Below are positions 31 to 47,793 of a stretch of DNA of 47,798 bases, piece after piece; positions within the stretch are counted from its first letter, which is position 1, and each line of letters opens with the position of its first letter. A program made the translations under genes and the position numbers. Source of the stretch: a virus (lineage: Duplodnaviria; Caudoviricetes); IMG/VR virus record IMGVR_UViG_3300048591_000612, positions 1 through 47,798 of that record. One strand, 5' to 3'. Under the pieces are notes generated by a model. That model was not told where the DNA came from and did not search any database. It saw only the letters and a program-made list of their open reading frames with translations.

Positions 31-290
<260 letters not shown>

Positions 291-327
291 CACAACAACC
301 ACACGATAACGTAACAACACAATACAC

Positions 328-633
328 ATGAACAACACGACACACATACCAACAACCGCCATTGCATCCAATGTTGCGAAACGTATCGTGGCAACATTTC
401 CCGACGTTGTTGGATCGTTCACGATACGTGCGCATCAACCAACACGCAACAACATCGGATCAACACATCATGTTGGATCACATGAATTGGTTCTACATTT
501 CATGCGTCAACATTCGGGCGCAACAATGTACACATTCCACATTGATAACAACGACGTTACGTCGATGGTTGTTGGGATGTTATCAACGGCATTGTTGGCA
601 TCACAACAACAATCACCATCAAACAACGCATGA
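328..633 (+). CDS. hypothetical early protein encoded almost without AG/CT
   Basis: 101 aa ATG ORF downstream of the promoter; only one CT (in CTAC) and no AG in the gene. Confidence 0.6.
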   Translation: MNNTTHIPTTAIASNVAKRIVATFPDVVGSFTIRAHQPTRNNIGSTHHVGSHELVLHFMRQHSGATMYTFHIDNNDVTSMVVGMLSTALLASQQQSPSNNA

Positions 634-733
634 TTATGTTAAAACTACTTCAAACCACACATAAACAATTACGCCATCACCATGCACGCATTTGAAGTTG
701 ATCCACGTAAATAAAACAACGTCATACACAGAC

Positions 734-2880: not shown

Positions 2881-3053
2881 GCACATTCAAACTCGACACC
2901 TCACAACCCATCCGAACAACATCCGTTAAGAAAATAACTCGTCACGGTACACGAGTCCGGGGAATTGAGAAGAAGAATCCATATTGGTACCTCCCCACAA
3001 CACACCGAGTACCTGAAGACCCTCCTTCATACAGAGAGGAGGTGGAAAAATAA
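2877..3053 (+). CDS. small hypothetical protein (58 aa, not in the ORF track)
   Basis: ATGA overlap at 2877; translated by hand as MSTFKLDTSQPIRTTS...YREEVEK, TAA at 3051-3053. Confidence 0.45.
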   Translation: MSTFKLDTSQPIRTTSVKKITRHGTRVRGIEKKNPYWYLPTTHRVPEDPPSYREEVEK

Positions 3054-3095
3054 TTTTACAACTACCTTGCATATGTGGTATATTGTGCATATATT
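3047..3095 (+). promoter_or_regulatory. sigma70-like promoter with conserved upstream element
   Basis: AAAATAATTTTACAACTACC, TTGCAT (3067-3072), 17 bp, TATATT (3090-3095); upstream block near-identical to the one before 8326. Confidence 0.7.
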
Positions 3096-7941: not shown

Positions 7942-8312
7942 TGGCACTTGTACCTATTGAAGCACGAGTCGACTCAACAGAGTTGGCACAGATCCTTCTA
8001 TATTTTGACGAGAGAGGGATCATAATAGATACGAAGTCTGAACTCCTTCGCATGGTCACAACCTTACTTGCAACCTTGTTAATGGATAATGGTAAGATTA
8101 AACCTATCACAGAGGAAGATGGACTTCGCATAATTAAAAGTCGTTTTGTAATAAGTGATCGTGGTAAACGATCTATTCAAAGAGCACTACAAGGGATTCA
8201 CATTAGTGAAGATTCCCTCGACGTGGTGGACCTTCCTACTATGCCCGCTAGTAAGAAGATGATGGATGATGCAATGGAGGCATTACGCAGATTCAACGAG
8301 GATGAAAAATAA
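7941..8312 (+). CDS. hypothetical protein, possibly DNA-binding
   Basis: 123 aa, TAATG coupling; RHH-like N-terminus. Confidence 0.65.
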   Translation: MALVPIEARVDSTELAQILLYFDERGIIIDTKSELLRMVTTLLATLLMDNGKIKPITEEDGLRIIKSRFVISDRGKRSIQRALQGIHISEDSLDVVDLPTMPASKKMMDDAMEALRRFNEDEK

Positions 8313-8354
8313 TTTTTCAACTACCTTGACAATGGCGTATAAATGTGTTAAATT
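8307..8354 (+). promoter_or_regulatory. strong sigma70-like promoter
   Basis: Perfect TTGACA (8326-8331), 17 bp, TAAATT (8349-8354) preceded by TG; AT-rich upstream element shared with the 3067 promoter. Confidence 0.75.
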
Positions 8355-8441: not shown

Positions 8442-8792
8442 ATGGAAAATGTACAAACCAGTAAGGTTATTGACGGTAACAAAGTTGAAGTCGTAACCGA
8501 GTACAATTTTGGTGCGGATCTGAACGAAGCAGTATCTTTGTTTGGTGAGTCACTTGTGTATGAATACTTCAAAGCCAATGCAACAGTTCGCCTTCAGGCG
8601 TTCGTTCGCACAAGGATTGAAGCAGGGAAGTCAGCTGACGAGATCCAAGAGGAAGCAAACCAGTGGAAGCCTGGTGAAGTCAAGCGTTCTTCCAAAGATC
8701 CGAAAGAGGAAATCGCAAAGCAGTTCGCCAAGCTATCTCCAGAGCAGCAAGCTGCCTACCTGGAATCGCTTCGTGCGCAGTTGGGGGTGTGA
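8442..8792 (+). CDS. hypothetical protein in its own promoter-terminator unit
   Basis: CAGGAG RBS; 116 aa; C-terminal KQFAKLSPEQQAAYL helix. Confidence 0.85.
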   Translation: MENVQTSKVIDGNKVEVVTEYNFGADLNEAVSLFGESLVYEYFKANATVRLQAFVRTRIEAGKSADEIQEEANQWKPGEVKRSSKDPKEEIAKQFAKLSPEQQAAYLESLRAQLGV

Positions 8793-12426: not shown

Positions 12427-12663
12427 ATGCAAAAAATACCTCGCAAAAAAAGACTGAGTGTTCCAATGGATGATGCGAAGTTTGAGAAGTTAAACCGCCT
12501 CATTCCATGGGGACTGAAGTATCATGTTATTGAAACCCTCATTGATGGGTTGATAGATATGATTGAGAAAGACAAGGATAACATGGTATTAAGTGCCATC
12601 CTTGCAAAACGTATCCCAACAGAAATTGTCCTCAAACAAGGATTGAAAGATGGCAACGATTGA
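12427..12663 (+). CDS. small putative DNA-binding protein
   Basis: RKKRLSVPMDDAKFEKL beta-alpha start, ribbon-helix-helix-like. Confidence 0.55.
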   Translation: MQKIPRKKRLSVPMDDAKFEKLNRLIPWGLKYHVIETLIDGLIDMIEKDKDNMVLSAILAKRIPTEIVLKQGLKDGND

Positions 12664-12889
12664 TGACCTTAAGAAAAGCATAAGCGAAATGAGTGATGAG
12701 GAACTAATGGAACAGATCCTCGAGTCACGTAAACGCAGACGTCAACCAAACCCTTCACGTAGGCAGAAGTCAGTAGCAGAGAAGAAAGTTAAGGAAGTGA
12801 CAAAGTCCCTCACTGACTTTCAAAAGATGCTCGCCATGATGCCGAAGGATCAGCAACTTGAAATACTAAAGAAACTTGAAACCTCATGA
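12650..12889 (+). CDS. small basic helical protein
   Basis: 79 aa, coupled to the ParB-MTase gene. Confidence 0.7.
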   Translation: MATIDDLKKSISEMSDEELMEQILESRKRRRQPNPSRRQKSVAEKKVKEVTKSLTDFQKMLAMMPKDQQLEILKKLETS

Positions 12890-14238
12890 ATGTACAAACA
12901 TTAGATATCAATTTGGTAGATGAAGGCAAGAGAAGTCGTGCAGACTATGGTGACATTGATGCACTTGTTCTCGATATTAAAGAGCATGGTTTATACCATC
13001 CTATTGTTGTGTATGAGAAGAAGGAAGGTGACGAGAATATCGAGGTGCCTTATCTACTCCTTGCAGGTGGTCGCCGCCTTAATGCGCTTCGCCGATTGGA
13101 GTTAACAGAGATACCTGCTCATATTGTCGAACGTGTCTTAACGGCAGAAGAGATCAAGGTGATCGAACTCCATGAAAACTTTGTGCGTAAGGATATGACA
13201 TGGCATGAGGAAGCCTCTCTCCGTAAAGAGATCTTCGATCTACAGGTGAAGATACATGGACCTATGCGCATGAAGGGTGGGGAGAAGATTGGTGTCTCTA
13301 CTGAGGACGTTGCAGATATGATGAACATAACTCGACGTCAGTTGACAAGGGATCTTGAACTCGCTGAGATGATTGAAAAGAATCCGGAGCTGAAGAATAG
13401 CGCATCAAAGGCTGAGGCTATTAAGAAGATTGAAGTAGCCAAAGAGGCAATGTTAAAAGAGGAACTCGCCAAGAGGCAGACTGCGAAGATGGCATCAAAG
13501 GGTACAGATCATGTACGTCGTAATCTCCTCAACGCATATATACACGGAGATGCCTTCGAGCACATGGAGCAATTCCCTGATAACTCATTCGACATCATTG
13601 AGATAGATCCACCGTATGCGATTGATCTCAAGGAGAAGAAGAAGTTGAAGGATGATAACCAAGAGCTCGACGACTACAATGAGGTGCCTATCAAAGAGTA
13701 CGTCGACTTCATGGATAGGACACTGACGCAAGCTGCTCGTTTGCTAAAGGACAGTGGTCACCTCATTGTGTGGTTTGCACCTGAACCTTGGTTCGAGGTT
13801 ATCAATAGACAGATTAGATCAAAGGGTCTTGACTGTACTCGCATACCTGGGATATGGAATAAAATCAAAGGGCAGACGATGCAACCTAACTATCGCCTCG
13901 GCAATGCTTATGAGATGTTCTTCTACGCACGTGGGGAGAGGGCTGTAATTGCAAAGGCAGGTACGAATAATGTCTTCACATTCCCTGGCGCTAATCCTGA
14001 TGATAAGATACACCCAACCGAACGTCCTATTGAAATGATACAAGCCGTACTTGAAACATTCGGCATGAAGGGTGCTCGTGTGCTTGTACCGTTTGCAGGT
14101 AGTGGGAATACAATCCTCGCTGCCCATAATGCAGGTATGACTGCTATTGGCTATGACCTCTCACAATCGTATAAGAAGTCATATGACCTACGTGTGCTGA
14201 CGAATGAGGCTCTTGCATTCTCATCGTATAAAAAGTAA
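12886..14238 (+). CDS. ParB-like domain + HTH + amino (N6A/N4C, class beta) DNA methyltransferase fusion
   Basis: ParB motifs GLYHPIVV, LLAGGRRL, ENFVRKD; HTH STEDVADMMNITRRQLTRDL; MTase IDPPY, HPTERP, VPFAGSG. Confidence 0.88.
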   Translation: MNVQTLDINLVDEGKRSRADYGDIDALVLDIKEHGLYHPIVVYEKKEGDENIEVPYLLLAGGRRLNALRRLELTEIPAHIVERVLTAEEIKVIELHENFVRKDMTWHEEASLRKEIFDLQVKIHGPMRMKGGEKIGVSTEDVADMMNITRRQLTRDLELAEMIEKNPELKNSASKAEAIKKIEVAKEAMLKEELAKRQTAKMASKGTDHVRRNLLNAYIHGDAFEHMEQFPDNSFDIIEIDPPYAIDLKEKKKLKDDNQELDDYNEVPIKEYVDFMDRTLTQAARLLKDSGHLIVWFAPEPWFEVINRQIRSKGLDCTRIPGIWNKIKGQTMQPNYRLGNAYEMFFYARGERAVIAKAGTNNVFTFPGANPDDKIHPTERPIEMIQAVLETFGMKGARVLVPFAGSGNTILAAHNAGMTAIGYDLSQSYKKSYDLRVLTNEALAFSSYKK

Positions 14239-14240
14239 CC

Positions 14241-14267
14241 ATCTACTGGACATTATGTCCGAAAGGC
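14241..14267. promoter_or_regulatory. dispersed palindrome copy 4, directly downstream of the ParB-MTase gene
   Basis: ATCTACT-GGACATTATGTCC-GAAAGGC. Confidence 0.85.
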
Positions 14268-14272
14268 AGGGT

Positions 14273-16711
14273 ATGATAACAACAGATAATGTTCCCAAAA
14301 GGATAGTAAATGGTGATGGTCCTTCCTCCGCAACGATCATGATTGTAGGGGATGCTCCTGGTTCTCAAGAAGAGATGAGAGGTAAACCATTCATCGGAGC
14401 TGCCGGTGATATCCTCAACGCTTGTCTTGAGAGAGCAGGTATCATCCGATCTAACTGTTACATAACAAACGTGGTTAAGGAACGACCACCTATGGGTAAC
14501 ATAGATACACTCATATCGTTCACAAAGGGTGTGAAGAAGTCAGCTGTTTATGAAACATATGAGAAGGCTTTGTATGCTGAGATAGATCGCATCAAACCTA
14601 ACGTGATAGTTGCAATGGGATCTGTCGCATTGTATGCAGTGACGAGGAAGACAAGTGTCATGAAGTATCGTGGATCAATCATGTCTTCATGTGAGGATAT
14701 CCCTGGATATAAGGTAATACCTGTGATACACCCAAGTGCTGCACTACGGCAGTACCTCTTACAACATATGATTGCGAATGATCTTAGGCGTGTACGTGAG
14801 CAGTCGAAGTTTCCGGAAGTTGTGTATAAACAACGTGAGTATATACTGAACCCATCCTTCGACGACTCACTCCGCTTCTTATCAGACTGCATGGGTTATA
14901 GTCGTGTTGCATTTGACATCGAGGTATCCAACATGGAAGTATCTTGCATATCATTTGCATATAGTGATAACCTCGCCATATCAATTCCCTTCATTCATAA
15001 TGGTCATGACTATTTCACACCATTACAAGAGGCAGAGATATGGAGGCGTATTGCTTTAATATTGGAGAATGAAAACATCGAAGCGCTTGGACAGAACACA
15101 ACCTTTGATACAACATTCCTCTTCAATAAGTACGGAATTAAGACAAAGAATATACAAGATACAATGGTGGCACAGGCTATCCTCTACCCTGATTATCCAA
15201 AGGGTCTTGATTTCATAACAAGTATGTACACTGACATCCCTTATTACAAGGATGAAGGTAAGCATCGTATCGTACATGGAGGTGGTTCGGATGAATCATT
15301 CTGGTTGTACAATGCGAAGGACTCTATTGTCCTAATTGAAGCATTCCCTAAACAACTCGCTGCCTTAACGGCACAAGGTAACCTTGACACATACCGTAAT
15401 CAGGTTAGGTTAATCGAACCCCTGTTGTACATGACACAGAGGGGAATGAAGATGGACTATGAGGGATTGGAGAAGGCAAGTAAGGATGCAGAGAAGCGCC
15501 TTGCTGAACTTGAGCTTGAGTTGGAGAAGATATGTGGGGAACGTATTAACCTTGCAAGTCCAAAACAACTCGGGGATTACTTCTATAAGAAGCTCGGTAT
15601 AAAGCCGTACCTGAAAGCTGGCAAGCCTACAACAGATGAAGGCGCATTGAAGCGTCTATCAAGACGAGGCTTCAAGGAAGCAGAAATCATAATGGAGCAT
15701 CGTACACTTGCCAAACTGAATGGTACATACTTCAAGATGAAACTGGATGAAGACAAGCGCCTTCGTACAGCCATGAATCCTGTTGGTACACGTACTGGTC
15801 GCCTGTCCTCAAGTCAAACAATATTCGGTACAGGAGCCAATGTGCAGAATCAACCTCCAATCATGAAGAAGTTCATGCTCTGTGATGAGGGGTATGTTGC
15901 ATATGAGGTTGATCTTGGGCAAGCGGAGAATCGTGTTGTTGCATACCTTGGGCCTGATTTGAAAATGATAGATGCGTTTGAAAGTGGCGCTGATATTCAC
16001 CGTCGTACAGCATCCCTCATATTCGGTACACCTGAAGATCAGATCAGTGATGAGGCTGGGTCAAGTGATATTGCAGGTGGGCAGTACAGTCAAAGGTTCT
16101 GGGGGAAGAAAGCTAATCACTCCCTTAACTACGGCATGGGATATAAGAAGTTTGCATATACCCTGGAGATTGCAGAGAATGAGGGTAAGTTTATTGTTGA
16201 CAGATATCATCAAGGTTACCCTGGTGTTCGGCAAATGCATTCTTGGATTGTCAACCAATTAAGGAAAGATCGCACCCTTACAAATCTATTCGGAAGGCGT
16301 TATGTATTCCTCGATAGATGGGACGACACCCTTATGACTGATGCATACGCCTTTATGCCACAGAGTAGTATTGCTGATAAAGTAAACAGGCATGGGCTCA
16401 TGTATGTATACTATAATCAAGACACATTCAAGCACGTGGAAATATTGAATCAGGTACACGATTCGATCCTCTTCCAAATCCCACTCACACAGAGTTGGGA
16501 GTATCATGCATCTTGCTTACTGGCTTTGAAGAATAGCCTTGAGCAACCAATGCACTTTCGTGGTCGTGACTTCAGTATCCCTGCAGATATGAAGATGCTT
16601 CCAAAGAATATGAAGGATGGGATTAACCTTAAGAAAGTCCCGGAAGATGTTAATGAATTTGCCACTATATTAAAGGAGTCTTATGAGTCATACTATAATA
16701 AAAAGGTGTGA
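14273..16711 (+). CDS. family A DNA polymerase with N-terminal uracil-DNA-glycosylase-like domain and 3'-5' exonuclease
   Basis: UDG-like GDAPG...PFIG, NVVKERPP, HPSA; exonuclease FDIE, NTTFD, YNAKD; polymerase TGRLSS, DLGQAE, KKANHSLNYG, QVHDS; ATG 14273 preferred over 14204. Confidence 0.92.
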   Translation: MITTDNVPKRIVNGDGPSSATIMIVGDAPGSQEEMRGKPFIGAAGDILNACLERAGIIRSNCYITNVVKERPPMGNIDTLISFTKGVKKSAVYETYEKALYAEIDRIKPNVIVAMGSVALYAVTRKTSVMKYRGSIMSSCEDIPGYKVIPVIHPSAALRQYLLQHMIANDLRRVREQSKFPEVVYKQREYILNPSFDDSLRFLSDCMGYSRVAFDIEVSNMEVSCISFAYSDNLAISIPFIHNGHDYFTPLQEAEIWRRIALILENENIEALGQNTTFDTTFLFNKYGIKTKNIQDTMVAQAILYPDYPKGLDFITSMYTDIPYYKDEGKHRIVHGGGSDESFWLYNAKDSIVLIEAFPKQLAALTAQGNLDTYRNQVRLIEPLLYMTQRGMKMDYEGLEKASKDAEKRLAELELELEKICGERINLASPKQLGDYFYKKLGIKPYLKAGKPTTDEGALKRLSRRGFKEAEIIMEHRTLAKLNGTYFKMKLDEDKRLRTAMNPVGTRTGRLSSSQTIFGTGANVQNQPPIMKKFMLCDEGYVAYEVDLGQAENRVVAYLGPDLKMIDAFESGADIHRRTASLIFGTPEDQISDEAGSSDIAGGQYSQRFWGKKANHSLNYGMGYKKFAYTLEIAENEGKFIVDRYHQGYPGVRQMHSWIVNQLRKDRTLTNLFGRRYVFLDRWDDTLMTDAYAFMPQSSIADKVNRHGLMYVYYNQDTFKHVEILNQVHDSILFQIPLTQSWEYHASCLLALKNSLEQPMHFRGRDFSIPADMKMLPKNMKDGINLKKVPEDVNEFATILKESYESYYNKKV

Positions 16712-35078: not shown

Positions 35079-36578
35079 TTAAATGATCCTGAAATCTTCA
35101 AGTGGCTCTCCGTACATATCATCAAGATCTGCATACTCGTCAGTTAAGACATCGTACTCATCATCTGTTGCAGTACCGTAACGCTCACCAATGGCAAGCA
35201 TTTCTGTAAGGTAACCAAGAGCATCCATAACGTCCCACAGTTTTGATCGTGGGAATGATAAGAGTTGTTGCTCAAGTTTACCTGTCACATTCTTATTGTG
35301 GAATATAATACCTTGTCGATATAGTGGGACAAGAGATCGGATACGTTCAATCTTCCCTTTCTCTTGCTTCCCACCTTTAGCGTGCAACGCTACAAATTCC
35401 ACATATATCTTCTTACGGATCAAGTAATCAACGATAGGGTATGAGATGTATTCTCCAATACCTGTAACCTCAACACCGAGCACACGGCAGTTATATCTCT
35501 TCACCATATCACCAACCTGCTCATATAGTTCATCGGGGTGAAACTTACCGGATACAATATCCCTTACATATATCCCACCGTTCTGATTATTGAATCCAAC
35601 GCAGACAATAGCGGAGTCCGCACTTTCCATCTTAGCCGTTTTAGCGGGGTCAACTATAACTAAGTTTTCAACATACGGACTCCTTGTTAAGTTAGCCTCA
35701 CCTTCATCGTAGTACTTAAAGTATTCTTGTTTGAATGCAGCATCTTCTTTCGAAATAGGAAGGTTCCTATATTCCCGCATGAAGACGTCAATCAAACCCT
35801 TTCGGCGATACGAGTCAGCAAGGGCTCTAACTTCCTCCGAAGACATCACGTTAGGTGCCTTCGTATTAAAATCATCATCACAAATTTCAAGACGAACTGA
35901 GTCCCAGTCAGGGTCTTCCAGTATCTCCTCAAGGAGAGCGTTCTCCGAGAGTATTGTCCCAAGGTATATAATCTTCCAATCCTTACGTCCACGATCTACA
36001 CAGCCCATAAGGTCAGCGTAGAACCACTGCTTTAATTTCCTTCTCTGCTCTTCTGATTGCACTTGCTCGGGATCTTCAAGGTCATCTATGATAATCAAAT
36101 CAGGACGACTATTGCGGAAGAGCATACCACGAATCTGTTGACCAGCACCACGAGGCATGATACAAGTTTCGTGAGATCCTACACTTACAACATACTGCTC
36201 CTTACTAAACACACTTGTTGAAATGTCACCATAGCGTGCAACAATCTCAGGGTTATTTGTGAGCTCATACTTAAGGTTCTCAGACTGCATTGTTGCAGCT
36301 GTCGCACTGGCTGATACAGGTACGATATATCTCTTATCTTGGAATAATGTACTCTTTGCAGGAAGAACAAGGTTATTAATCGATGTCTTGCCGATACCCC
36401 TTGGAGCCGCAATGGCAATTAGCTGACTTGTACTATTATCAATAAGATTAAATATCTCATGATGGATAGGATCAAAGTCACGATAAAAGCGCTCAGGGAA
36501 AAATACCTTCGCCATCACAGATGTGTCTGCGTAACACTCTGCAAGGAGTTGGCGATCAAGATCATTGATATCTACCAC
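35079..36578 (-). CDS. terL: terminase large subunit
   Basis: APRGIGKT Walker A, IIIDDLE Walker B, nuclease VDPA and DVMDAL. Confidence 0.9.
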   Translation of the reverse strand: MVDINDLDRQLLAECYADTSVMAKVFFPERFYRDFDPIHHEIFNLIDNSTSQLIAIAAPRGIGKTSINNLVLPAKSTLFQDKRYIVPVSASATAATMQSENLKYELTNNPEIVARYGDISTSVFSKEQYVVSVGSHETCIMPRGAGQQIRGMLFRNSRPDLIIIDDLEDPEQVQSEEQRRKLKQWFYADLMGCVDRGRKDWKIIYLGTILSENALLEEILEDPDWDSVRLEICDDDFNTKAPNVMSSEEVRALADSYRRKGLIDVFMREYRNLPISKEDAAFKQEYFKYYDEGEANLTRSPYVENLVIVDPAKTAKMESADSAIVCVGFNNQNGGIYVRDIVSGKFHPDELYEQVGDMVKRYNCRVLGVEVTGIGEYISYPIVDYLIRKKIYVEFVALHAKGGKQEKGKIERIRSLVPLYRQGIIFHNKNVTGKLEQQLLSFPRSKLWDVMDALGYLTEMLAIGERYGTATDDEYDVLTDEYADLDDMYGEPLEDFRII

Positions 36579-37803: not shown

Positions 37804-38901
37804 TCAACAACCAGTATACCAACCTCTTTTAGAGAGGTCAGCTATTCGCGTAAGTGCGTTGTCATACAACTCAGCACCTCTTTCAAGACTGTACTTCCGC
37901 CGAGCATTCTCAGCTATGATTCGCCTATCTACATCATTAAATGTGCGAACCTTCTGCACAGCCTCAATCCAATCTAACAACGTCTTACACCTGAAACCAT
38001 TCTGCCCATGCTCAACAGTTTCAGTGAAAGCACCGTAATCGACAGAGAGAAGTGGCGTACCACATAGCATACCTTCCACACCTGAGCCACCAAAAGGTTC
38101 GACGAAGAGTGTAGGCATTACTGTGCACATTGCACTTCCCAACAAACGTGATCTGTCACGACCATGTACAGGTGGGATATAACGCAACTTATCGTACTTA
38201 TCAAGGTATGGCTGAGGATCGCCTTGACCGCAGATATATACCTTATTATACACTCGCTGTGCTATCTCACCAACTGTATCAATTCCTTTATTCTGTGTGA
38301 TACGACCGAAGAAGAGGATACTATTATCATGCTCTGTCGATACATACCACTCACTTACATCAAACGTATTAGGTATGACGAAGTGGTAATTAGACCCATG
38401 CGCCTTCTCTTTGCCAGCATGGTAGTGCATCCATGCGTATGACTCATATATGCGATATGGGAGGAAGCACTCAGGATAACCAATGCCAGGCTCTACATGA
38501 TATGCGTCTGGAAATTCTTGCACAAGACGTGGGTGTGCAGGACCGAAGTGGTGGAGAATGATATCCCCTTTCTGCACCCGAGTCTTCATCGCACGAATGA
38601 GGCGATCTTCGAATAAGGTATGCTGAGGTGTTCCAACTGCACCATAGTTACCATGAAACCCCTTGTTATCACCAATCGGGCAGTGCTGTGCGATCTCTTC
38701 CTCTGATAACATTGGAACAATCTCAAACGATCCATCATGATACTTCGACCCAGCTCCATTGGTGTAGTCGATAAGAGGCCAATCCATCAACTGCGCTATA
38801 CGTACGAATCGTACAACTTTCTGTGTGAAGGCACAGTGGCTATATACGTCCGTTGGGAGTGTGTGGAATATCCCAATGCTATGTAATGTAGGCTTTCTCA
38901 T
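37804..38901 (-). CDS. glycosyltransferase (GT4 / GT-B fold)
   Basis: FFGRITQNKG and EPFGGSGVEGMLCGTP (E-X7-E), GAFTETV. Confidence 0.85.
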   Translation of the reverse strand: MRKPTLHSIGIFHTLPTDVYSHCAFTQKVVRFVRIAQLMDWPLIDYTNGAGSKYHDGSFEIVPMLSEEEIAQHCPIGDNKGFHGNYGAVGTPQHTLFEDRLIRAMKTRVQKGDIILHHFGPAHPRLVQEFPDAYHVEPGIGYPECFLPYRIYESYAWMHYHAGKEKAHGSNYHFVIPNTFDVSEWYVSTEHDNSILFFGRITQNKGIDTVGEIAQRVYNKVYICGQGDPQPYLDKYDKLRYIPPVHGRDRSRLLGSAMCTVMPTLFVEPFGGSGVEGMLCGTPLLSVDYGAFTETVEHGQNGFRCKTLLDWIEAVQKVRTFNDVDRRIIAENARRKYSLERGAELYDNALTRIADLSKRGWYTGC

Positions 38902-39521
38902 ACTCCACTCCTATCATAAATACCAGCAAAGAAAGGTCCGTGCATACACGTCTCGGCATTGTCATAGTTACCCCTTACAAGAAGGCGATTAACCATACCC
39001 TGCTCCTCAATGAATCGGTGCATATCAACTGCATTTAATGTGTGCAAGTGTCCAGTATATGTTGGGATATCTACCCATTCAAATATACGCAGACGCTTAC
39101 CATACGCACACGCTTTCTGTAGGATCAAATAAGGATCCATTACGTGTTGAAGGCAGTTATAGATCCACACTTCATCAAAGGCAAATGCCTGTGTGTCAAT
39201 GTCAGGAAGTTCCTCAGCAGGATGAATGATCCTACTGATACCTCTCTGCTTATATACGTCCTCATAGTGGTCGTACTCAATCGGATCAAGTGCTACACAC
39301 TGCGTAGGGTTCTTCGCATACGATAAGAGCATAGATGTAGGACCTGAACCTATATCAAGGATCATTCCATCTACGCCATTTGTAATATCAAGAAGACCAG
39401 CAACGACATCACCTTTACGCTTCTCAGCGCGGATGCCTTCGTCACCTATAGACAACCACCAGCCCTTTTCGAACTGTTGTGCGTCCTGCCATTCTTGTGT
39501 TCTATCTTTCATTTGTTCCAT
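38898..39521 (-). CDS. class I SAM-dependent methyltransferase (small molecule/glycan type)
   Basis: ILDIGSGP, ALDP, FDEVWIYNCLQHVMDP. Confidence 0.85.
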   Translation of the reverse strand: MEQMKDRTQEWQDAQQFEKGWWLSIGDEGIRAEKRKGDVVAGLLDITNGVDGMILDIGSGPTSMLLSYAKNPTQCVALDPIEYDHYEDVYKQRGISRIIHPAEELPDIDTQAFAFDEVWIYNCLQHVMDPYLILQKACAYGKRLRIFEWVDIPTYTGHLHTLNAVDMHRFIEEQGMVNRLLVRGNYDNAETCMHGPFFAGIYDRSGV

Positions 39522-39552: not shown

Positions 39553-42387
39553 TTAAACTTTAATTGCTATCATATGTGATCCTGCATAAACACTTATCTG
39601 GTTTGTACCAGAAGCACCTCTTGCTTGGAGTTTTATACTTCCACCACTACCACCAGTCTGTATTACCATAGAGCATGATAAGACCTGAGTAAAAGGATCA
39701 CCTGGTACGAAATCAACATTAGGACCAATATCACCGCTATCAGCTGCTATATAATTAGTGAAGGCACAGACATAATTACCAGATAACCTTCCCAGTATAG
39801 ATGTAATAGAAACCCCACCGCTCCTACCAGTCATTGAATAACCTAATAATGGATAAGAACTACCGCTTGTTATTCTATGGGCTACTTCAAACTTTATTAT
39901 ATAAGTAGAATTAGCAGCAAGTCCAGTTATCGCAAAGCCACTCACATCAGAATACCCACTGCTGTTTGTATTATACGTAGTAGAAATATTCCTATACATC
40001 AACGCATTAGGCCCTTGTGGGCCTGTAGCTCCCTCAGGGCCTGTTGCTCCCGTTTCACCTACTCCTGTTTCACCCTGTACCCCAGTTGCTCCTATGATAC
40101 CAGTCGCACCCACAACACCTGTTGCTCCGCTAACACCAGTAGCGCCAGTCACTCCTGTAGAACCGGTTGCCCCTACTCCAGTCGCACCTGTTGTACCTAC
40201 GCCTGTAGCTCCAGTAACACCAGTAGGACCTGTCTGACCGGTAGCTGATGCAATAATCTCAAATACTTGATCGCCTTCACTCCAAGAAGAGTCACCGCCG
40301 ACATACTCGACAGCCCAATAAAAGCCGCCAAATCCTGTCTGCGTGTTACCTGTGATGCGGAAAATAGATCCACGAAAACGAATCTGAGAACCAGCAAAAA
40401 TTGCACCTGGCACAAGGTTGATAAAGTCGGCATACCCTGACGCATCATTTGAATGGATGACTACAAACACAGTGTCGGCAGGCGTGTCGGCAAGCGACGA
40501 TCCGCCCGTCTCAAGGAACATACACTGACCGTTGCTGATCGGATTGGCATACGCTCCGACCTTATCCCTGACAAACGACCTCGTTCCCCTGTGCTCGTAG
40601 AGTGAGCGCTTGAGGATGTTCGGATTGATAGCATGGGTCGTGTTCGTGCCTTCTTTGGCATCGGTGAGCGTGGCAATATTGACAGGACCCGCAATACCAG
40701 TTGGACCTGTCTGACCGATAGGTCCAGTTGCCCCAGTCACACCTTGTGTACCAACCCCTGTGGCACCTGTTACACCAGATTCACCAATAACACCAGTGCC
40801 TCCAGTAATACCAGTCGCACCCGTTATACCTATACCGGTAGGTCCAGTCTCACCAACAGCTCCAGTTGCTCCCGTGATACCTATGCCAGTTGCCCCTTGT
40901 ATGCCGGTCGCCCCTGTGATGCCAATTCCCGTAGCTCCGGTTATCCCAATACCAGTCGCCCCCTGCGTACCAGTGGCGCCAGTTATACCAACCCCAGTAG
41001 CACCTGATACGCCAATAGGCCCAGTCTGACCTACAACACCCGTAGCACCAGTTATACCAATACCTGTTGAACCTGTTAATCCAGTTGCCCCAGTGACCCC
41101 AACTCCTGTTGCCCCAACTGTGCCTGTTGCCCCAGTTTGACCAATAGTCCCAGTGGCTCCAACAGTGCCAACTCCAGTCGCGCCTTGGATGCCTGTAGCA
41201 CCCGTTGTTCCAACTCCGGTCGCACCAACAGTCCCAACTCCCGTTGACCCTTGGATACCCGTTGCTCCGACTGTGCCAGTAGCACCTGTGATTCCGGTAG
41301 CCCCAGTTTCCCCATCGACTCCAGCACCTGTCGCTCCTTGCGTGCCTGTAGCTCCAACGACTCCAGTAGCCCCTGTAACTCCGACTCCCGTAGGACCAGT
41401 TTGCCCAATGCTACCTGTCGCTCCAACCGTACCAGTTGCTCCTGAAGTACCAATACCGGTAGCCCCTGTAAGTCCAGTAGCACCAGTTGTACCAGTCGCT
41501 CCAACGTCTCCCATGAGAGCAATGTACTGCCAGTTATCCTGCCAAGAAGCTCCAACACCTGGCTCATTCGAGGCTCCAGCTGTGTGAGCAAGGATACAAC
41601 GGTATGAAGATCCGTCATTTTGTACGGCATCGTCTATATCATATGATGTTGAACTTGTCCATGTACCAAGCCATGAGAGTGATCCACCTGGGATACCCGT
41701 TGCACCAAGAGGTCCAGTCGATCCAGTTAAACCTGTTGCACCTGTTATACCAACCCCCGTAGCACCGGTTTCACCCGCTCCTGTGGCTCCAGTAAGACCT
41801 GTTGCTCCACTTACTCCTATAGCACCCGTTGCACCTGTAATACCTACACCAGTGCTCCCTTGTATGCCTGACGCACCAGTTGCGCCCTGAACTCCTGTGG
41901 CTCCCGTTTGACCGATGCCTGTAGCGCCAACTGTACCAGATGCGCCTTGTAGACCTGTAGCCCCAATGACGCCTGTTGCACCTGTAGTGCCTTGTGTACC
42001 AATGCCAGTAGCTCCAGCTGATCCTGTCGCTCCCACTGATCCCGAAGGTCCAGTCGCTCCAGTAGATCCCACTCCCGTCGGTCCTGTTTGCCCTTGTACA
42101 CCTGTTGCTCCAGTTATGCCGATTCCAGTTGCTCCTGTTACACCAGCGCCTGTTGCGCCTATTGCTCCCGTAGCTCCTACAACACCACTCGGTCCTGTAG
42201 CGCCAGTTGTTCCTGCTCCTGTTGCCCCCGCAACACCAGTAGCACCAATCACCCCAGTTGCGCCGGTAGGACCTTGCGCCACATTCGTAAGGACATTAAC
42301 ACGAATAGTCGTCTCTGTGACGCCTACATTCGTGACCTCTGTCGATACATTGATAAGGGTATTATTTGGTGATACAGTTATAAGCAT
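39553..42387 (-). CDS. collagen-like fibre protein with G-X-T repeats and a CBM5/12-like insert
   Basis: Three GAT/GVT/GIT/GPT repeat blocks; [27 protein letters not shown]...W insert; non-repetitive C-terminus. Confidence 0.85.
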
Positions 42388-42390
42388 TGG

Positions 42391-42768
42391 TTAGAAATCT
42401 CCTGTGTTAGATCTGAACACTGCACGACCATACCAGTATGTTTTGTATATATCACCTGGGAGTTTGACACGAAGATCGTAGCGATATTTATTCCTACGTA
42501 CCTCTCCAATCAACTCATCGGTCTGCTTAATCACTTCAATATGCGTGGCATCAATCACTGTGATCTCACCATCTTCAGATGATGCGGATATAACAGGGAT
42601 ATCATCCTCTGTGCTCCTCTTAAACTCAAGTAGGAACTCCCAATTAGCAAAGCCTGTGATAGGATCACCTGCATCATCTGTGAACTCAAGCACGAAGTGT
42701 ATTGTATCACTCCTCATAAATGTGAGATTCACTTCTGCTGCACCCGATAAATCTACATCATATGCCAT
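42391..42768 (-). CDS. fibre-associated beta-sandwich protein
   Basis: RSDT...YRYDLRV...YWYG pattern typical of fibre-anchoring domains. Confidence 0.5.
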   Translation of the reverse strand: MAYDVDLSGAAEVNLTFMRSDTIHFVLEFTDDAGDPITGFANWEFLLEFKRSTEDDIPVISASSEDGEITVIDATHIEVIKQTDELIGEVRRNKYRYDLRVKLPGDIYKTYWYGRAVFRSNTGDF

Positions 42769-42774
42769 ATCATT

Positions 42775-42801
42775 ACCTTTCGGACATCGTGTCCATCAGA
42801 T
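42775..42801. promoter_or_regulatory. dispersed palindrome copy 8
   Basis: ACCTTTC-GGACATCGTGTCC-ATCAGAT; fills the intergenic gap. Confidence 0.85.
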
Positions 42802-42804
42802 GAG

Positions 42805-43251
42805 TTAAACAGTATCTATATCCCCAGAGACAATCTGTATGTCGAGAGAAAGCACTTTGAGTGTAAGACCCTCAACAATATCAACAACAGGTGCGACATC
42901 GCCCTCAGCAAACATGTGCCAGGTTCCAGACTCACTCGCTGTGTTATCATCACGATACTTTATCGTAAGCGCACGAATAGAGCCGAAGCCGCCACTCGGT
43001 GCGGTGAACTCAAGTATGTCAAGACCATCCTGGGAGAGTACCATTGTATCATCTCCATCAGCATAAGTCCACTCATACACTGTACCATTAGATGCAGCGT
43101 TACCCACATACTTAATACCATTCGCACTTGTTATCTCCACATTATTCGTATTACGAAGACCGAAGCGGAACACCCTATTTATAACATTAGCATCGAGATT
43201 GTCCCAATGAAACAGTACACTGATATATCCTGGAGATGCAAAATGTGCCAT
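42805..43251 (-). CDS. virion/fibre structural protein
   Basis: 148 aa beta-rich; weakly resembles the C-terminal domains of its upstream neighbours. Confidence 0.55.
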   Translation of the reverse strand: MAHFASPGYISVLFHWDNLDANVINRVFRFGLRNTNNVEITSANGIKYVGNAASNGTVYEWTYADGDDTMVLSQDGLDILEFTAPSGGFGSIRALTIKYRDDNTASESGTWHMFAEGDVAPVVDIVEGLTLKVLSLDIQIVSGDIDTV

Positions 43252-43252
43252 G

Positions 43253-44206
43253 TTATACGATCCTTACACCTGAGCCAACTTGGTCAACGTATGGTACGTC
43301 ACCTGTGTTGTATGTTCCGTAACTTGCTGCTGTAACCTGGAATGTTACATCACCTGTATTACCCCCAGGCACTGTTGTGTTGCCACTCGTACTATTCGTA
43401 TTGATCCGCACGAAGTATGGCTTAGCATACCCATTATCTGCAATATTGATCTGAGGGAATGTTACAGATGTTTGTAGGTAAACCTTAGAATCATATTGCC
43501 ACAGCTTCACTGGCTGACGTGCATAGCCTGTATAATTCAACTCAGCGCCAACATCATCATGAAGGGACATCCAATATACAGTGCCATCTGTCAGTGTATT
43601 CGCCAGTGACTGTGTGACAGTATCACCTGTAACAATATCAATAAGGGATGACGCAAGTGCAGCGTATGGGAAACCTCCAAAGAAGCGTACAATCAGATCT
43701 TGTATTTGAAATGTCTGATTTGGATCAATGTGCGGAACTGGATATAGCGGTATGCGAGCGAAGAGTAACCATGTAGGATCGTGTGCTGGACTAGTCTTCA
43801 CACGTGTATGAATCCTTACATTGTTAACATCTCCCCAATCAGCAGTCTTCGGATCAAAGATCATTGGACTTGTACTGTTGATATTGGCGAGGCGTATAAT
43901 ACTATTCGCCAGACCGAAGTCAGCACGTCTCCAGAGCCAAGGATCAGATGGACTCTCGTTCTCTATATCACTAAAGTCTACACAGTCATATGTGATTGTA
44001 TCAACAGATCCAGCAACACCACTCGTCTTCTGTGAATCATTATTCCAAAGGGTGAAGCGCCATTGACGCAGTGCCTCTCCTGGGCTGTCGGTAAGAACAT
44101 CCCTTGGCTTCGTCATGCCTTTATATATCAAAAGCGGGAGTCCGCTATTGTGGATGATAGGCATTGATGCGCTCCTTAAAGTCTTCCGTTGCAGGTTGCT
44201 TCCCAC
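43253..44206 (-). CDS. virion/fibre structural protein
   Basis: C-terminal TVYWMSL...ELNYTGYARQPV...VTFP domain; true start may be 44164 or 44116. Confidence 0.6.
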   Translation of the reverse strand: MGSNLQRKTLRSASMPIIHNSGLPLLIYKGMTKPRDVLTDSPGEALRQWRFTLWNNDSQKTSGVAGSVDTITYDCVDFSDIENESPSDPWLWRRADFGLANSIIRLANINSTSPMIFDPKTADWGDVNNVRIHTRVKTSPAHDPTWLLFARIPLYPVPHIDPNQTFQIQDLIVRFFGGFPYAALASSLIDIVTGDTVTQSLANTLTDGTVYWMSLHDDVGAELNYTGYARQPVKLWQYDSKVYLQTSVTFPQINIADNGYAKPYFVRINTNSTSGNTTVPGGNTGDVTFQVTAASYGTYNTGDVPYVDQVGSGVRIV

Positions 44207-44345
44207 TATTGATCAGATCCAAGAGCATTGGATGATGCCTCACTGGATCGGTCATGACCATATCTATTGCCTCACCATCCGCGTTCATGATAAACGCAGA
44301 GAAGTGTACAACTGCACCTGTGTTATGTTTCTGTTCACTTTGCAT
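44145..44345 (-). CDS. small hypothetical protein
   Basis: 66 aa, GAGG RBS, TAATG-coupled to the upstream gene. Confidence 0.5.
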   Translation of the reverse strand: MQSEQKHNTGAVVHFSAFIMNADGEAIDMVMTDPVRHHPMLLDLINSGKQPATEDFKERINAYHPQ

Positions 44346-45532
44346 TATATTGCCTCAACTTCCACGTCACCTGAATTAAATTGAAGTACGTAGTTCAGTG
44401 GCACATCAAACGTGGCTATGCTCATGGCTATATATTGTGTTCCACCTGTGGATGCACTGAATATACGTACTTCATCAATATCGTCCCACTGTGATGTAGC
44501 AAGCGGGAAGGTTGCATCTGTGTTACTATCGACTTTCTCACCACTTGTTATGTAAATGGCACCGAAGCCGATAGATGCACGAGCGTAACCATTCCCACTT
44601 ACTTCAACACCACTACTGTATAGTGCGAGATATACTGTATTATTCTCAATGTTTTGCATTGCAAGGTTTTCACCACTTCCAAGTCCGACGTCTTTGTAAA
44701 CTGCCTTATACATGAATGTGACTTCATCCTTATCAAATACGATACCATGATGTAACACAGCAATCCCAGCACCATCCTTTCTCACTTGAACAATCTTATC
44801 ACTTAGCGTAACAGCTATCATGTGAGAACCAATCTTAAAAGGTACTCCAGCTTCAATGAAGTACCAAATACCACTATGAAGAACAACAGATGCATCTGTA
44901 TTACGCAGAGCGTATATACCTTTTGTTGCGGCGGGAAGTGATATTATATGCCCACCTATACTGAATGTATGCACCACTGGTGTTTTATAAACAAGTCCAG
45001 CGTGCACAACGGTTTTCGCATCTACATTCCTACGTGCGACTATTTCACTTGTCACACTATCCTTCGATATAATGTGAGCGCCAATACTGTACAGTTTTCC
45101 TTTTTCAATATGTGACACTGTGCCACCATGTAATAAGGATATTCCTACAGCCTCACGCCCAACGTAGATAATCCGATCAATATCAATAGAGGAAAGAACA
45201 TTAGCCGTTAGGCTATAGACACGTCTTGGTGGTGTGAACCAGTGAGCGAAGGAGTGGATGATCGCTTTTGCGTGTATGTGATAACGACCTTTGATTCTCG
45301 GATAAGGATCCCAATAGGTGCACTCGTAGTCGTACAGACACTCAAATGGTTGGACACAAGTGAATGATTCGGATAACGTGTAAGGTGTAGCGCACGTGAA
45401 CGATTCATCGACTGTGTATGGGAGTGAGAGGGTATACGGTGTGTTACAGAGGTACGCCTCATTGCACGTGAAGGACGCGCTGCACGTAAAGGCTTGAGAA
45501 CAGGTGAAGAGGAAATCATTGCAGTTAAACAC
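44345..45532 (-). CDS. virion/fibre protein with Cys hexapeptide repeats
   Basis: N-terminal [FY]xCxxx repeats; C-terminal TVYLALY...EVSGNGYAR...TFPLATSQW...STGG domain. Confidence 0.65.
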   Translation of the reverse strand: MFNCNDFLFTCSQAFTCSASFTCNEAYLCNTPYTLSLPYTVDESFTCATPYTLSESFTCVQPFECLYDYECTYWDPYPRIKGRYHIHAKAIIHSFAHWFTPPRRVYSLTANVLSSIDIDRIIYVGREAVGISLLHGGTVSHIEKGKLYSIGAHIISKDSVTSEIVARRNVDAKTVVHAGLVYKTPVVHTFSIGGHIISLPAATKGIYALRNTDASVVLHSGIWYFIEAGVPFKIGSHMIAVTLSDKIVQVRKDGAGIAVLHHGIVFDKDEVTFMYKAVYKDVGLGSGENLAMQNIENNTVYLALYSSGVEVSGNGYARASIGFGAIYITSGEKVDSNTDATFPLATSQWDDIDEVRIFSASTGGTQYIAMSIATFDVPLNYVLQFNSGDVEVEAI

Positions 45533-45535
45533 ATC

Positions 45536-46096
45536 TTATTTCTCCCCTTCATCTGTCCATTGCATATTACCATCTCCATCCCACTGCTCTGATACAGGTG
45601 TTCCATCTGGTACGATAATAGCGTCAGCAAGGACACCTGCACGACGCATACGCTCAACTGCTGCCTCCTTAATCGCAGCAATTTTATCATCATCCATCTT
45701 CTTATGATCCACTTGCACACGTTTAACCGCAGCATGACCCGCACGATCGAGGATGTCACGAGCTGCCGTAACACGAGTTTCCGGCTTCACATTACCATCG
45801 AGCATTACTTCCTTCAACAACATTGCTGCGATTGGAGCAAGCTTCGTGATCTCAGATGCAACCTCCATTGTTTCAACATCCAGGGAGGCGTTCATATTCG
45901 CTAACTGCGACTGCACAATCGGACTGTACTTCGTATTCACAACCGTTGCTTCTGATACGCCCAGTTCAGCGGCAATATCCTTATTGCTCATCCCCAATAC
46001 GATGCGACGGATAATATCCTTATGAACCTGATTCATCTTCTTCAGCGAAAATGATCGGTCATTTGTGATAAGACTTTGCCCAGTTGCTGTTTCCAC
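45536..46096 (-). CDS. terminase small subunit-like HTH protein
   Basis: GMSNKDIAAELGVSEATV HTH and RVTAARDILDRAG motif; first gene of the late operon. Confidence 0.65.
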   Translation of the reverse strand: METATGQSLITNDRSFSLKKMNQVHKDIIRRIVLGMSNKDIAAELGVSEATVVNTKYSPIVQSQLANMNASLDVETMEVASEITKLAPIAAMLLKEVMLDGNVKPETRVTAARDILDRAGHAAVKRVQVDHKKMDDDKIAAIKEAAVERMRRAGVLADAIIVPDGTPVSEQWDGDGNMQWTDEGEK

Positions 46097-46160
46097 GTCT
46101 TCGTAGGTGAGAGGGTTTTATGCGCTGATAGGTGTGGCAAATGTGCATTTACCTAATACT

Positions 46161-46189
46161 AATATACAACAATCCATATATGGATGCAA
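46161..46189 (-). promoter_or_regulatory. sigma70-like promoter heading the structural operon
   Basis: Minus strand TTGCAT (46189-46184), 17 bp, TATATT (46166-46161). Confidence 0.65.
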
Positions 46190-46239
46190 CAACCGATGCA
46201 AAATAATTTACCACAATTACACGTAGAACAAACACACAA

Positions 46240-46266
46240 ACCTATCGGACATTATGTCCATTGCGT
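46240..46266. promoter_or_regulatory. dispersed palindrome copy 9
   Basis: ACCTATC-GGACATTATGTCC-ATTGCGT. Confidence 0.8.
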
Positions 46267-46404
46267 GCGTTGCGTTAAACGTGTGATGTATGTGAAAGGT
46301 ATGCCACGTGTGGCAAAATGTGGTATTTTATAAAAATCATCTGCACCAAAATTGTGCTTGTGTGGGTGTGGCGTGGATCGTTTTTCCCCAACGTCCCCCC
46401 CGTT

Positions 46405-46462
46405 GGTTAATTACGTTAACTAATCATTTTCACGCAACAACGGTTAATTACGTTAACTAACC
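46405..46462. repeat. pair of 21-bp palindromes GGTTAATTA-CGT-TAACTAAYC
   Basis: Copies at 46405-46425 and 46442-46462. Confidence 0.85.
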
Positions 46463-46521
46463 ATTTCGTGACCATCGCAACATTGCGGATAAAATACTCC
46501 TTAATCCGTAATATGTACAAC

Positions 46522-46555
46522 AAAAAACGGTTGTACGTTTTATCATACAACCGTT
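46522..46555 (-). terminator. intrinsic terminator of the AG-free gene
   Basis: Perfect 10-bp stem AACGGTTGTA/TACAACCGTT followed by a T run on the minus strand. Confidence 0.7.
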
Positions 46556-46577
46556 GTTGTTCAACCGTTCACGTTGT

Positions 46578-47192
46578 TTACGTTGTCGGTTTCCATGTTT
46601 GCATTATTGTTTCGATCATCGCATCGTTCATACCGTTTTTACGACACATATCAATAAAAATTTCGCGTTGTTGTTCGGGCGTCAATTTATCGTACATTTT
46701 ATCAATTTTGTTCATGGTTGCATATTGTGGTTTCGGAATTGCATCAACAACGTTTGTATTTACAACCGTTGGTAATTTTCCCGCCGTTTCACGCAAAACA
46801 CGTTGTTCACGTATATTTGTTGGTTTCGTTGATAATGTACATACACCACCAACCGTACATCCATCGAAACGATTGTTTATCGTTGTTGTTTGTTGTCGGG
46901 TTTCGTCCAACACGTTTTTTCCGTGTTTGTCCAATATGAATTTTCCGTCGTTGTCACGTTTATACGGTGTTGTGGTTGCGGTTGTGGATAACGTGCCGAT
47001 TAATTTGGCATCGTTTGCCGGGAAACGATGTTCAACGTTATCAATTGTGACAACAACGAATAAATCGTTATTGTTGTTGGTTGTGGTTGTTGCGTTGTTG
47101 TCGGTGGATGCGTTGGTTGTGTTCATGTTGTTGATTGTTTGGGCGTTGTTGTTGTTGTCGTTGGTTGCGTTGTTGGTTGTTGTCGTTTCCAT
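46578..47192 (-). CDS. hypothetical early protein (204 aa, Thr/Asn-rich N-terminus) encoded with no AG/CT
   Basis: ATG 47192 (METTTTNN) lies downstream of the 47310-47282 promoter; terminator follows the stop. Confidence 0.7.
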   Translation of the reverse strand: METTTTNNATNDNNNNAQTINNMNTTNASTDNNATTTTNNNNDLFVVVTIDNVEHRFPANDAKLIGTLSTTATTTPYKRDNDGKFILDKHGKNVLDETRQQTTTINNRFDGCTVGGVCTLSTKPTNIREQRVLRETAGKLPTVVNTNVVDAIPKPQYATMNKIDKMYDKLTPEQQREIFIDMCRKNGMNDAMIETIMQTWKPTT

Positions 47193-47281
47193 CGTTGTTT
47201 TTCCGTTGTGTTTTTGTTGTTGTTGTGGCGTACATATATTGCACATATACGCATTGTGCCGTTGTTTTTTGGGCACATTCC

Positions 47282-47310
47282 AATATACACAATTTTGTGT
47301 ATCCGCACAA
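47282..47310 (-). promoter_or_regulatory. sigma70-like early promoter
   Basis: Minus strand TTGTGC, 17 bp ending TGTG, TATATT. Confidence 0.55.
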
Positions 47311-47394
47311 CATATACCACAAACAAACAACATTTATTTTCAACCGTTGTTGTTGCGTACGTTGTTGTTGGATGCGCCACCGTACACGGAAAAT

Positions 47395-47459
47395 GATTAG
47401 TTACGTTAATTAACCATTTCACGCACATTGGGCCAAATGGTTAGTTACGTTAATTAACC
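47395..47459. repeat. pair of 21-bp palindromes GRTTAGTTA-CGT-TAATTAACC
   Basis: Copies at 47395-47415 and 47439-47459. Confidence 0.85.
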
Positions 47460-47572
47460 GTTATCGTTGTTGACCCAACGACCGCAACAACATTTATGTT
47501 CGCTAACTGCATGATGCCGGTGTAACAATGTGTTTGTTGGTGTAGTTGTTTGCATCGTATGTTGTGTATGTG

Positions 47573-47793
<221 letters not shown>

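Follow-up and report, generated by a model that had tools for sequence, protein, structure and literature searches.

Proteins that join a ParB-type CTPase fold to an N6_N4 methyltransferase are frequent in phages, where an anti-defense role has been suggested for them and where ParB folds differ in their use of nucleotides; the accessible text of the survey that describes them gives no target, loading site, or genome signature (PMC12704722). ParB-terminase large subunit (ParB-Tls) loci likewise combine a ParB fold with an N6-adenine methyltransferase and have been predicted to act as modifiers of phage DNA, and as far as the available description goes their genes are located at the terminase and have a link to packaging (PMC4738411). 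A functional precedent is provided by the non-specific enzyme M.EcoGII and by Mu Mom, which densely modify phage DNA and thereby give broad anti-restriction, and which are toxic on expression according to the accessible part of the report (PMC12707154). Phage self-methylation as such is already known; loading of the methylase in cis, as proposed here, is possibly new. To our knowledge, neither M.EcoGII nor Mom has a ParB clamp, loading sites, or a target-free zone. A precedent of another kind is the T7 leader and the T5 first-step transfer DNA, in which restriction sites are avoided in the DNA that is injected first. Our literature search, in which few subscription journals were covered, returned neither a dinucleotide desert at a phage end nor parS-like sites for a ParB-methyltransferase fusion. 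In their accessible parts, the pink-berry methylome study does not include the phage group treated here (PMC9296519) and a further paper contains nothing on the system (PMC10477858).

The 47,798-bp DNA analyzed here is a caudoviricete genome from IMG/VR (IMGVR_UViG_3300048591_000612; "the window" refers to this whole stretch). It encodes a podophage gene set with a UDG-fused DNA polymerase A, a DUF3987 primase-helicase, Sak4, and an SU10-type portal and capsid. The nearest named record is Desulfofustis phage LS06-2018-MD01 (MD01; OP947158), at 38–43% identity (terL 42.6%, MCP 40.5%, primase 42.2%, ParB-methyltransferase fusion 38.4%), and more distant kin include Mel-JY34, Vibrio phage VS-ABTNL-3, Kuura, Tiera, and the PaMx41 group. 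PaMx41-like Jamesmcgillvirus phages have a like gene order at 22–28% identity (primase 27.7%, MCP 22%, terL 23%), and PaMx41 has no fusion, trough, or palindromes of the kind described below; a quick terL tree places the clade of the window far from PaMx41 and Tiera (the Fredfastierviridae comparison). In addition to the window, 31 IMG/VR records and 10 GenBank records were compared, and five matches in genome collections that proved to be contigs in MAG bins were excluded from host assignment.

The fusion gene of the window (12886–14238, plus strand) encodes a ParB/Noc-like N-terminus with a GGRR box, an HTH-like region, and a beta-class N6/N4 methyltransferase, the same Pfam pair (PF02195 and PF01555) that the available text reports for the surveyed phage fusions (PMC12704722). 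The ParB domain matches PF02195 at E 7.8e-8 and Noc/ParB structures at E 9e-8 to 5e-3, with the GGRR box inside the alignment. The methyltransferase domain matches PF01555 at E 5e-20, its best solved match is CcrM (E 1.7e-11), and N4-cytosine methylases are the next matches. A DPPY motif (residues 241–244) precedes FAGSG (403–407), which is the beta-class order, and the Asp usual before motif I is a Val. N6-adenine methylation at AG would be the activity, the target being read from the depletion alone. The gene immediately precedes that for UDG-DNA polymerase A, and in relatives it likewise belongs to the replication block ahead of Pol; its position about 21 kb from terL (35079–36578) differs from that given for the ParB-Tls genes (PMC4738411). 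The polymerase gene itself (14204–16711), with its N-terminal UDG-family domain, is common to most relatives including the fusion-less Kuura and vir526, and this UDG-bearing form was not detected in PaMx41, Tiera, P5, or VS-ABTNL-3. Just upstream of the fusion, a small gene conserved in relatives (12650–12889) encodes a C-terminal helix pattern like that of a family of junction genes described below, as judged by weak profile matches.

Dispersed along the window is the palindrome GGACA-N3-TGTCC, with copies at 741, 2408, 8389, 14248, 24943, 30008, 35057, 42782, and 46247 where 0.03 would be expected, spaced 1.7–10.7 kb apart. Other genomes with the fusion have dispersed palindromes of their own, such as GTTTAA-N3-TTAAAC and TGGTAA-N5-TTACCA. 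In 27 of 30 fusion-bearing genomes inside the clade, and in one of four distant ones, the palindrome score is above the highest obtained without a fusion. Among the arms listed, 25 of 26 lack AG and CT, compared with 45% of background hexamers, the arms not being independent of one another. One relative (G015, L174:2857-4092) encodes a ParB-HTH protein whose methylase-like domain is degenerate and lacks DPPY and FxGxG, and it has kept its palindromes, so the sites follow the DNA-binding part; we regard the palindromes as putative loading sites of the ParB-HTH region. With ParB/Noc and their parS/NBS sites the system shares N-terminal similarity, a GxRR box, an HTH-like region, and dispersed, lineage-specific palindromes of 13–17 bp. 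Unlike ParB/Noc, the window protein is fused to a methylase, no parA was seen (none among the 35 window proteins scanned, in which the sole AAA match is Sak4-like), and the sites occur genome-wide rather than clustered at the origin.

The dinucleotide that this enzyme is proposed to modify disappears from one part of the genome. The original prediction was that positions 46502–47398 contain no AG and no CT where roughly 100 would be expected at uniform frequencies, and the counts over these 897 bp are indeed 0 and 0, against 103.7 predicted from base composition. The nearest sites are a CT at 46500–46501 and an AG at 47399–47400. This run spans 106 expected occurrences, compared with 15.7 for the next dinucleotide class, and the longest AG/CT-free run among 414 other loci (4.76 Mb, overlapping) is 175 bp. 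AG and CT are common elsewhere in the genome, as had been noted, with 5,534 against 5,490 expected in 1501–46000; the depletion is thus local, and genome-wide deamination was rejected. Avoidance of UV-induced pyrimidine dimers was also rejected, since TT is abundant. GA and TC are present inside the desert, as the original prediction held, yet they are reduced to 0.45 and 0.77 of expectation.

The core stands as first delimited, but the depleted zone around it is wider. A left shoulder upstream of terS (46160–46501) holds 9 AG+CT against 40.8 expected, a right shoulder (47399–47740) holds 10 against 40.3, and depletion continues at the other end of the window (77–730), with 8 against 76.2. Altogether 27 AG+CT remain in 46160–47740 plus 77–730, where the summed expectation is about 260, and 15 of the 22 residual sites in 46358–47740 plus 77–700 are TAG. 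The zone is about 2.2 kb long and crosses a poly-A tract between the late operon, which starts with the terminase small subunit gene terS (45536–46096, minus strand, first late gene and our junction anchor), and the early genes. The non-coding flanks of the core are as empty as its gene, with 0 AG+CT against 8.8 expected in 46502–46577 and 0 against 24.5 in 47193–47398; an RNase target in mRNA was rejected, as both strands and non-coding DNA are affected.

The core encloses a gene of about 204 amino acids (46578–47192, minus strand; the frame is open from 47333, and the start is uncertain). Genome codon usage predicts 55.3 AG+CT in the ORF as read from 47192 to 46578, and the probability of zero is 10^-35.7, so that the depletion goes beyond codon usage. 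As the original prediction had it, Lys, Glu, and Gln are encoded only by AAA (13), GAA (8), and CAA (8), Leu only by TTR (9), and Arg only by CGN (9), and the ribosome-binding site avoids AGGAG, an RBS-like GGA standing at 47204–47202 on the minus strand with no AG. Codons for Lys, Glu, and Gln that must end in A bar a following codon that starts with G, and these residues precede Val, Ala, Asp, Glu, or Gly in none of 29 cases in the AG-free ORF, compared with 394 of 1,143 in 16 other genes. The rule imposed on the DNA has therefore changed the protein sequence.

A contig from an independent sequencing run (X1, 5,809 bp) is collinear with 41923–47726 at roughly 85–90% identity, and the segment has the same orientation in this one strain as in the window. 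Between 46470 and 47420 the two differ at 74 positions; the 40 listed differences were counted, the other 34 and a diverged part of 200 bp standing outside the counts. Sites that make AG or CT number three among these 40, against 12.2 expected (P = 3e-4), and they trace to two events that fall outside the ORF, one of them next to gaps in the alignment. Isolated sites make none in 20 (5.8 expected, P = 8e-4), and none of the 31 listed differences inside the ORF creates either dinucleotide. Because X1 is collinear and its differences avoid AG and CT, the desert is not chimeric and is under constraint. These data bear directly on the possibility that the desert is an artefact or by-product of a chimera, low complexity, protein composition, or local mutational bias, for which the GTT/AAC-rich sequence of the region, the Thr/Asn-rich N-terminus of its protein, the homopolymers at the window ends, and a single-sequence search that matched the ORF to no other database protein might be cited. 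With the collinear contig, the codon control (P about 1e-36), the empty non-coding DNA, and a trough that recurs across the family, this explanation is largely refuted, and we consider it extremely improbable.

The junction bears out part of the architecture originally described. A promoter and a terminator had been placed inside the desert with the gene; a terminator-like hairpin with a T run is found at 46555–46526 on the minus strand, but the promoter was not confirmed, a consensus scan giving no minus-strand site upstream of the AG-free ORF and four sites against 5.2 in shuffled sequences. An Rfam search gave no matches. The gene is enclosed by inverted repeats, each arm consisting of two copies of a 28-bp repeat (46401–46466, in which TAG sites are kept, and 47389–47462, which is 89% complementary to the left copies). 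The TAG-retaining repeats could be a methylation-sensitive operator or the trace of an old inversion; no recombinase for inverting the segment was found among the 35 window proteins scanned. Searching viral and metagenome collections for the 15–19 nt core of the repeat gave 105 loci, and blastn related none of them to the window. Elsewhere in the window, two 44-bp repeats that are 82% alike (3039–3082 and 8298–8341) place sigma-70-like boxes ahead of early gene blocks, and these promoter-like repeats contain CT, so not all promoter-like sites are target-free.

Both ends of the window lie in poly-A (49 A at 47741–47789, plus strand, where the assembly breaks, and 41 A at 36–76), and the circular MD01 record has a single poly-A in the corresponding position, on which grounds we treated the ends as joined. 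An imperfect inverted repeat of 82 nt (47637–47718 with 96–177, 69.5%) flanks the poly-A. Tracts of 9–30 A occur at the junction in many relatives, with or without the methyltransferase, and often break assemblies. The poly-A and its inverted repeat are possibly an origin, an end, or an ejection signal.

The protein encoded in the desert was traced through its paralog and its relatives. A single-sequence search matched only itself (one of 446 candidates), and the ESM Atlas gave it no usable match. It has a weak profile match (E about 1e-3 prior to its own inclusion) to proteins encoded beside terS in relatives, a family whose profile recovers 1,556 representatives at E<=1e-3; its gene is inverted relative to 26 of 27 family matches and lies on the terS strand. 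The junction family is in turn related to the family of a window gene at 8442–8792 (plus strand; hhalign 96%, E 2e-9), a distant paralog with ordinary AG+CT (49 against 54 expected). In 22 of 27 genomes the junction copy is below the paralog in codon-corrected AG+CT (p = 0.001; four of the 27 rest on weak matches at E>0.01 that are probably wrong), and in two relatives, G008 and G007, no junction-copy profile match was found at E<0.05. The paralog matched only phage clusters in the ESM Atlas, and against Pfam the junction family had no match above the curated cut-off among 25 scanned of the best 150. Structure models of the two paralogs reached pLDDT values of 83.8 and 94.8; Foldseek returned nothing at E<=1e-3 for the model of the 8442–8792 product, and fold comparison of both by VIA gave best Z scores of 4.4 and 3.9, without a meaningful match. 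Judged from these models and searches, the AG-free protein appears to be without a known family or fold match, which does not establish a new fold.

The original prediction had proposed a search for AG deserts in other phages together with their co-occurring genes, and that comparison found a weaker trough at the same junction, accompanying the ParB-methyltransferase fusion. The junction AG minimum of each genome is the lowest AG ratio, scaled to that genome, of any 1-kb window no more than 3 kb from terS; anchors in GenBank records were read manually from their annotation, and VS-ABTNL-3 was anchored on the first late gene. The median is 0.62 in 25 fusion-bearing genomes, the window included, compared with 0.79–0.88 in six without the fusion (Mann-Whitney p = 0.0011). 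This main test leaves aside eight genomes anchored only on terL (0.50–0.89), G015 with its degenerate methylase (a modest 0.73), MW202554 (0.67), and G007 (0.83; a contig without the Pol region). On a quick terL tree the fusion label switches about three times, so the p-value overstates independence, and of the six genomes without the fusion, five belong to distant lineages that have other hosts. The junction lies below all other blocks in 18 of 25 fusion-bearing genomes and in none of seven others, G007 being among the seven. On the same strand, AG is below 1 at 22 of 24 fusion-bearing junctions and CT at 23 of 24; since both drop, the effect is on DNA and not on mRNA. Junctions without the fusion are themselves somewhat short of CT (0.86; five of six below 1).

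The best control lies within the clade: G008 (terL 46%) has neither a trough nor a palindrome set, and the 570 bp between its SSB and Pol genes hold no fusion-type gene; its sister G007 likewise has no trough and no palindromes. Fusion-bearing genomes with little or no trough are G034 (0.91), G041 (0.89), G042 (0.88), G012 (0.82), and G019 (0.80). MD01, with which the window shares gene order, the junction poly-A, and the trough, reaches 0.61, a partial depletion that is strongest for TAG and AGC. Relatives in general reach 0.4–0.9, and the window alone reaches zero. The AG-free stretch marks the far end of a depletion of AG that the family as a whole shows at the early/late junction. The desert is real, extreme, and under constraint, and it forms part of a pattern that runs across the family and is linked to one particular gene. 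Strong selection against one dinucleotide on both strands, as first proposed, thus stands on the codon control, the avoidance seen in X1, the forbidden dipeptides, and the family-wide trough. The original prediction left the enzyme responsible as one of phage or host; the comparative data favor the phage-encoded ParB-methyltransferase as the putative modifier of the dinucleotide. A different kind of gap in MD01 is a 581-bp GC-free stretch, with a long CG/CC-poor stretch, in the structural gene region (L003:31336-32275).

Selection by host defense without any phage methylase would require that the first-entering DNA shed CRISPR PAMs containing AG (AAG-type) or restriction sites. AAG is missing over 1,812 bp across the junction and GAG over 2,098 bp, the longest deserts, and MD01 is reported as a CRISPR target in the available part of the study of its community, in which orphan methyltransferases of unpredictable specificity are also described (PMC10370329). 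Every NAG context is nonetheless zero in the core, all four alike, and so is every AGN, whereas ATG/CAT (33 against 39.3 expected), TTC (28 against 30.2), and CCA (27 against 27.1) are close to normal. The type I-E PAM set includes ATG, which the core has not lost. Restriction-site avoidance fits no better, as the loss is not limited to sites of 4–8 bp. Depletion of the AG core is furthermore seen again in phages with Desulfofustis, Vibrio, and Microcystis assignments and is absent from G008 within the clade. We regard avoidance of host defense as quite unlikely.

The missing motif shifts with the fusion in more distant phages. Two deposited isolates, VS-ABTNL-3 and Mel-JY34, carry the fusion, and both have troughs. 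In VS-ABTNL-3, a cultured Vibrio phage with a divergent fusion, a 1,103-bp desert of CAG/CTG lies at the end of the record; PVS_51, inside it, contains no CAG/CTG, whereas its paralog PVS_50, just outside, contains 26. MW202489 carries a fusion 34% identical to the Vibrio one, and at its junction CAGC is missing over 1,100 bp. In G042 (L290-L292), CCA (11 against 37) and ACCA (0 against 13) are depleted about 1.2–2.2 kb upstream of terS, and AG is not; motif IV of its fusion shows no obvious change, and the depletion possibly reflects a specificity switch or host phosphorothioate pressure.

Triplet-specific losses of this kind could also arise if CT-containing triplets were removed so that no priming occurs near an origin or end marked by the poly-A and repeats. 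CTG or CTA are DnaG sites, the Vibrio desert is exactly CAG/CTG, MD01 and a partial relative, L104, lose TAG/CTA most, and poly-A with inverted repeats would fit an origin or end. (L104 has a 1,166-bp TAG/CTA desert upstream of terL, at L104:6269-7434.) Exclusion of primase sites is nevertheless improbable in our judgment, as the window lacks every CTN in its core and not one triplet. Moreover, the fusion-less G008, PaMx41, Kuura, Tiera, P5, and vir526 keep the primase-helicase and have no clear trough, a trough that is likewise missing from G008 and Kuura despite their A tracts.

The position of the zone can be related to a mapped terminus, a 606-bp terminal repeat having been reported for Kuura in the accessible text (PMC9959647). 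The Kuura record begins just upstream of terS. Taken with T7-like gene order, by which we placed the first-entering end, this analogy suggests that the depleted zone is the genome end that enters first. Loss of motifs limited to a probable entry end is what the T7 leader and the T5 first-step DNA also show; there the motifs are host sites of 4–8 bp, whereas in the window a two-base motif, apparently the phage's own target, is purged to zero.

We hypothesize, at slightly better than an even chance, that the fusion loads on the palindromes and methylates AG along the phage DNA, and that the target has been purged from the terminal, first-expressed region. Loading of the ParB-HTH part would take place at GGACA-N3-TGTCC sites every 2–11 kb and be followed by sliding, and the two together would confine a methylase of two-base specificity to phage DNA, sparing the host chromosome. 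At AG, of which there is about one site per 8 bp, the DPPY domain would produce m6A, and most host restriction sites would be masked. At the end entering first, host RNA polymerase would read the junction before any phage protein is present, or methyl-directed nucleases would strike there first, and AG would be purged from both strands even at the expense of amino-acid choice. Within this proposal, the link between the desert and the phage-encoded enzyme stands on firmer ground; loading, sliding, the modified base, its target, and why marking would be costly are predicted from the sequences, and the cost may come from host RNA polymerase, methyl-directed nucleases, or packaging. The toxicity of M.EcoGII and Mom on expression supplies a reason for restricting the methylase in cis, and the fusion is proposed to recognize a dinucleotide, in contrast to those low-specificity enzymes. 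With the fusions surveyed in PMC12704722 the difference, within what that source gives, is that the fusion here goes with dispersed palindromes and with a zone poor in AG (or in CAG).

The same co-occurrence with the fusion would be seen if AG methylation guarded the genome from a phage or host nuclease that cuts unmarked AG, and the terminal region escaped methylation (for example as a repeat copied during packaging) and so had to lack AG. The zone is placed where the Kuura terminal repeats are, and chloroviruses have nicking enzymes with R/AG specificity. The palindromes at 46247–46259 and 741–753, however, flank the zone and, if they are loading sites, would make it the best-covered part, and beyond generic PD-(D/E)XK and RNase T-like exonucleases no candidate AG nuclease was found among the 35 proteins scanned, many small early ORFs being without an assignment. 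We consider an unprotected end unlikely.

The remaining probability lies with a modification other than methyl. The window, which has the deepest desert, is also alone in encoding a group-1 glycosyltransferase (0 of 32 relatives have this family). That enzyme more likely modifies protein, given the neighboring fiber gene. It is encoded with a SAM methyltransferase (37804–39521) beside the collagen-like fiber gene, whose product is a 944-aa GxT protein (39553–42387).

Returning to the methylating fusion, its most specific form, which we put forward tentatively and at somewhat less than an even chance, is a parS-loaded, CTP-gated sliding methyltransferase with which a widespread podophage lineage would write m6A at dinucleotide density in cis. 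The gene in the methyl-free entry region, itself the paralog of a later gene, would be expressed before the marked DNA is readable, and the missing motif would read out the specificity of the enzyme, AG here and CAG in VS-ABTNL-3. Such a function and target, both testable, would give content to ParB-methyltransferase fusions, which have so far been a domain pairing, and would suggest a way to use a near-promiscuous methylase without poisoning the host, by loading it on the phage's own DNA. A methylase that is loaded at sites and spreads in cis could serve as a tool for regional DNA marking, and scanning generally for motif deserts next to the terminase gene may show what other DNA-modifying enzymes of unknown target recognize. 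For the phage itself, the locus is a case in which selection on a motif of two bases in DNA has prevailed over protein sequence.
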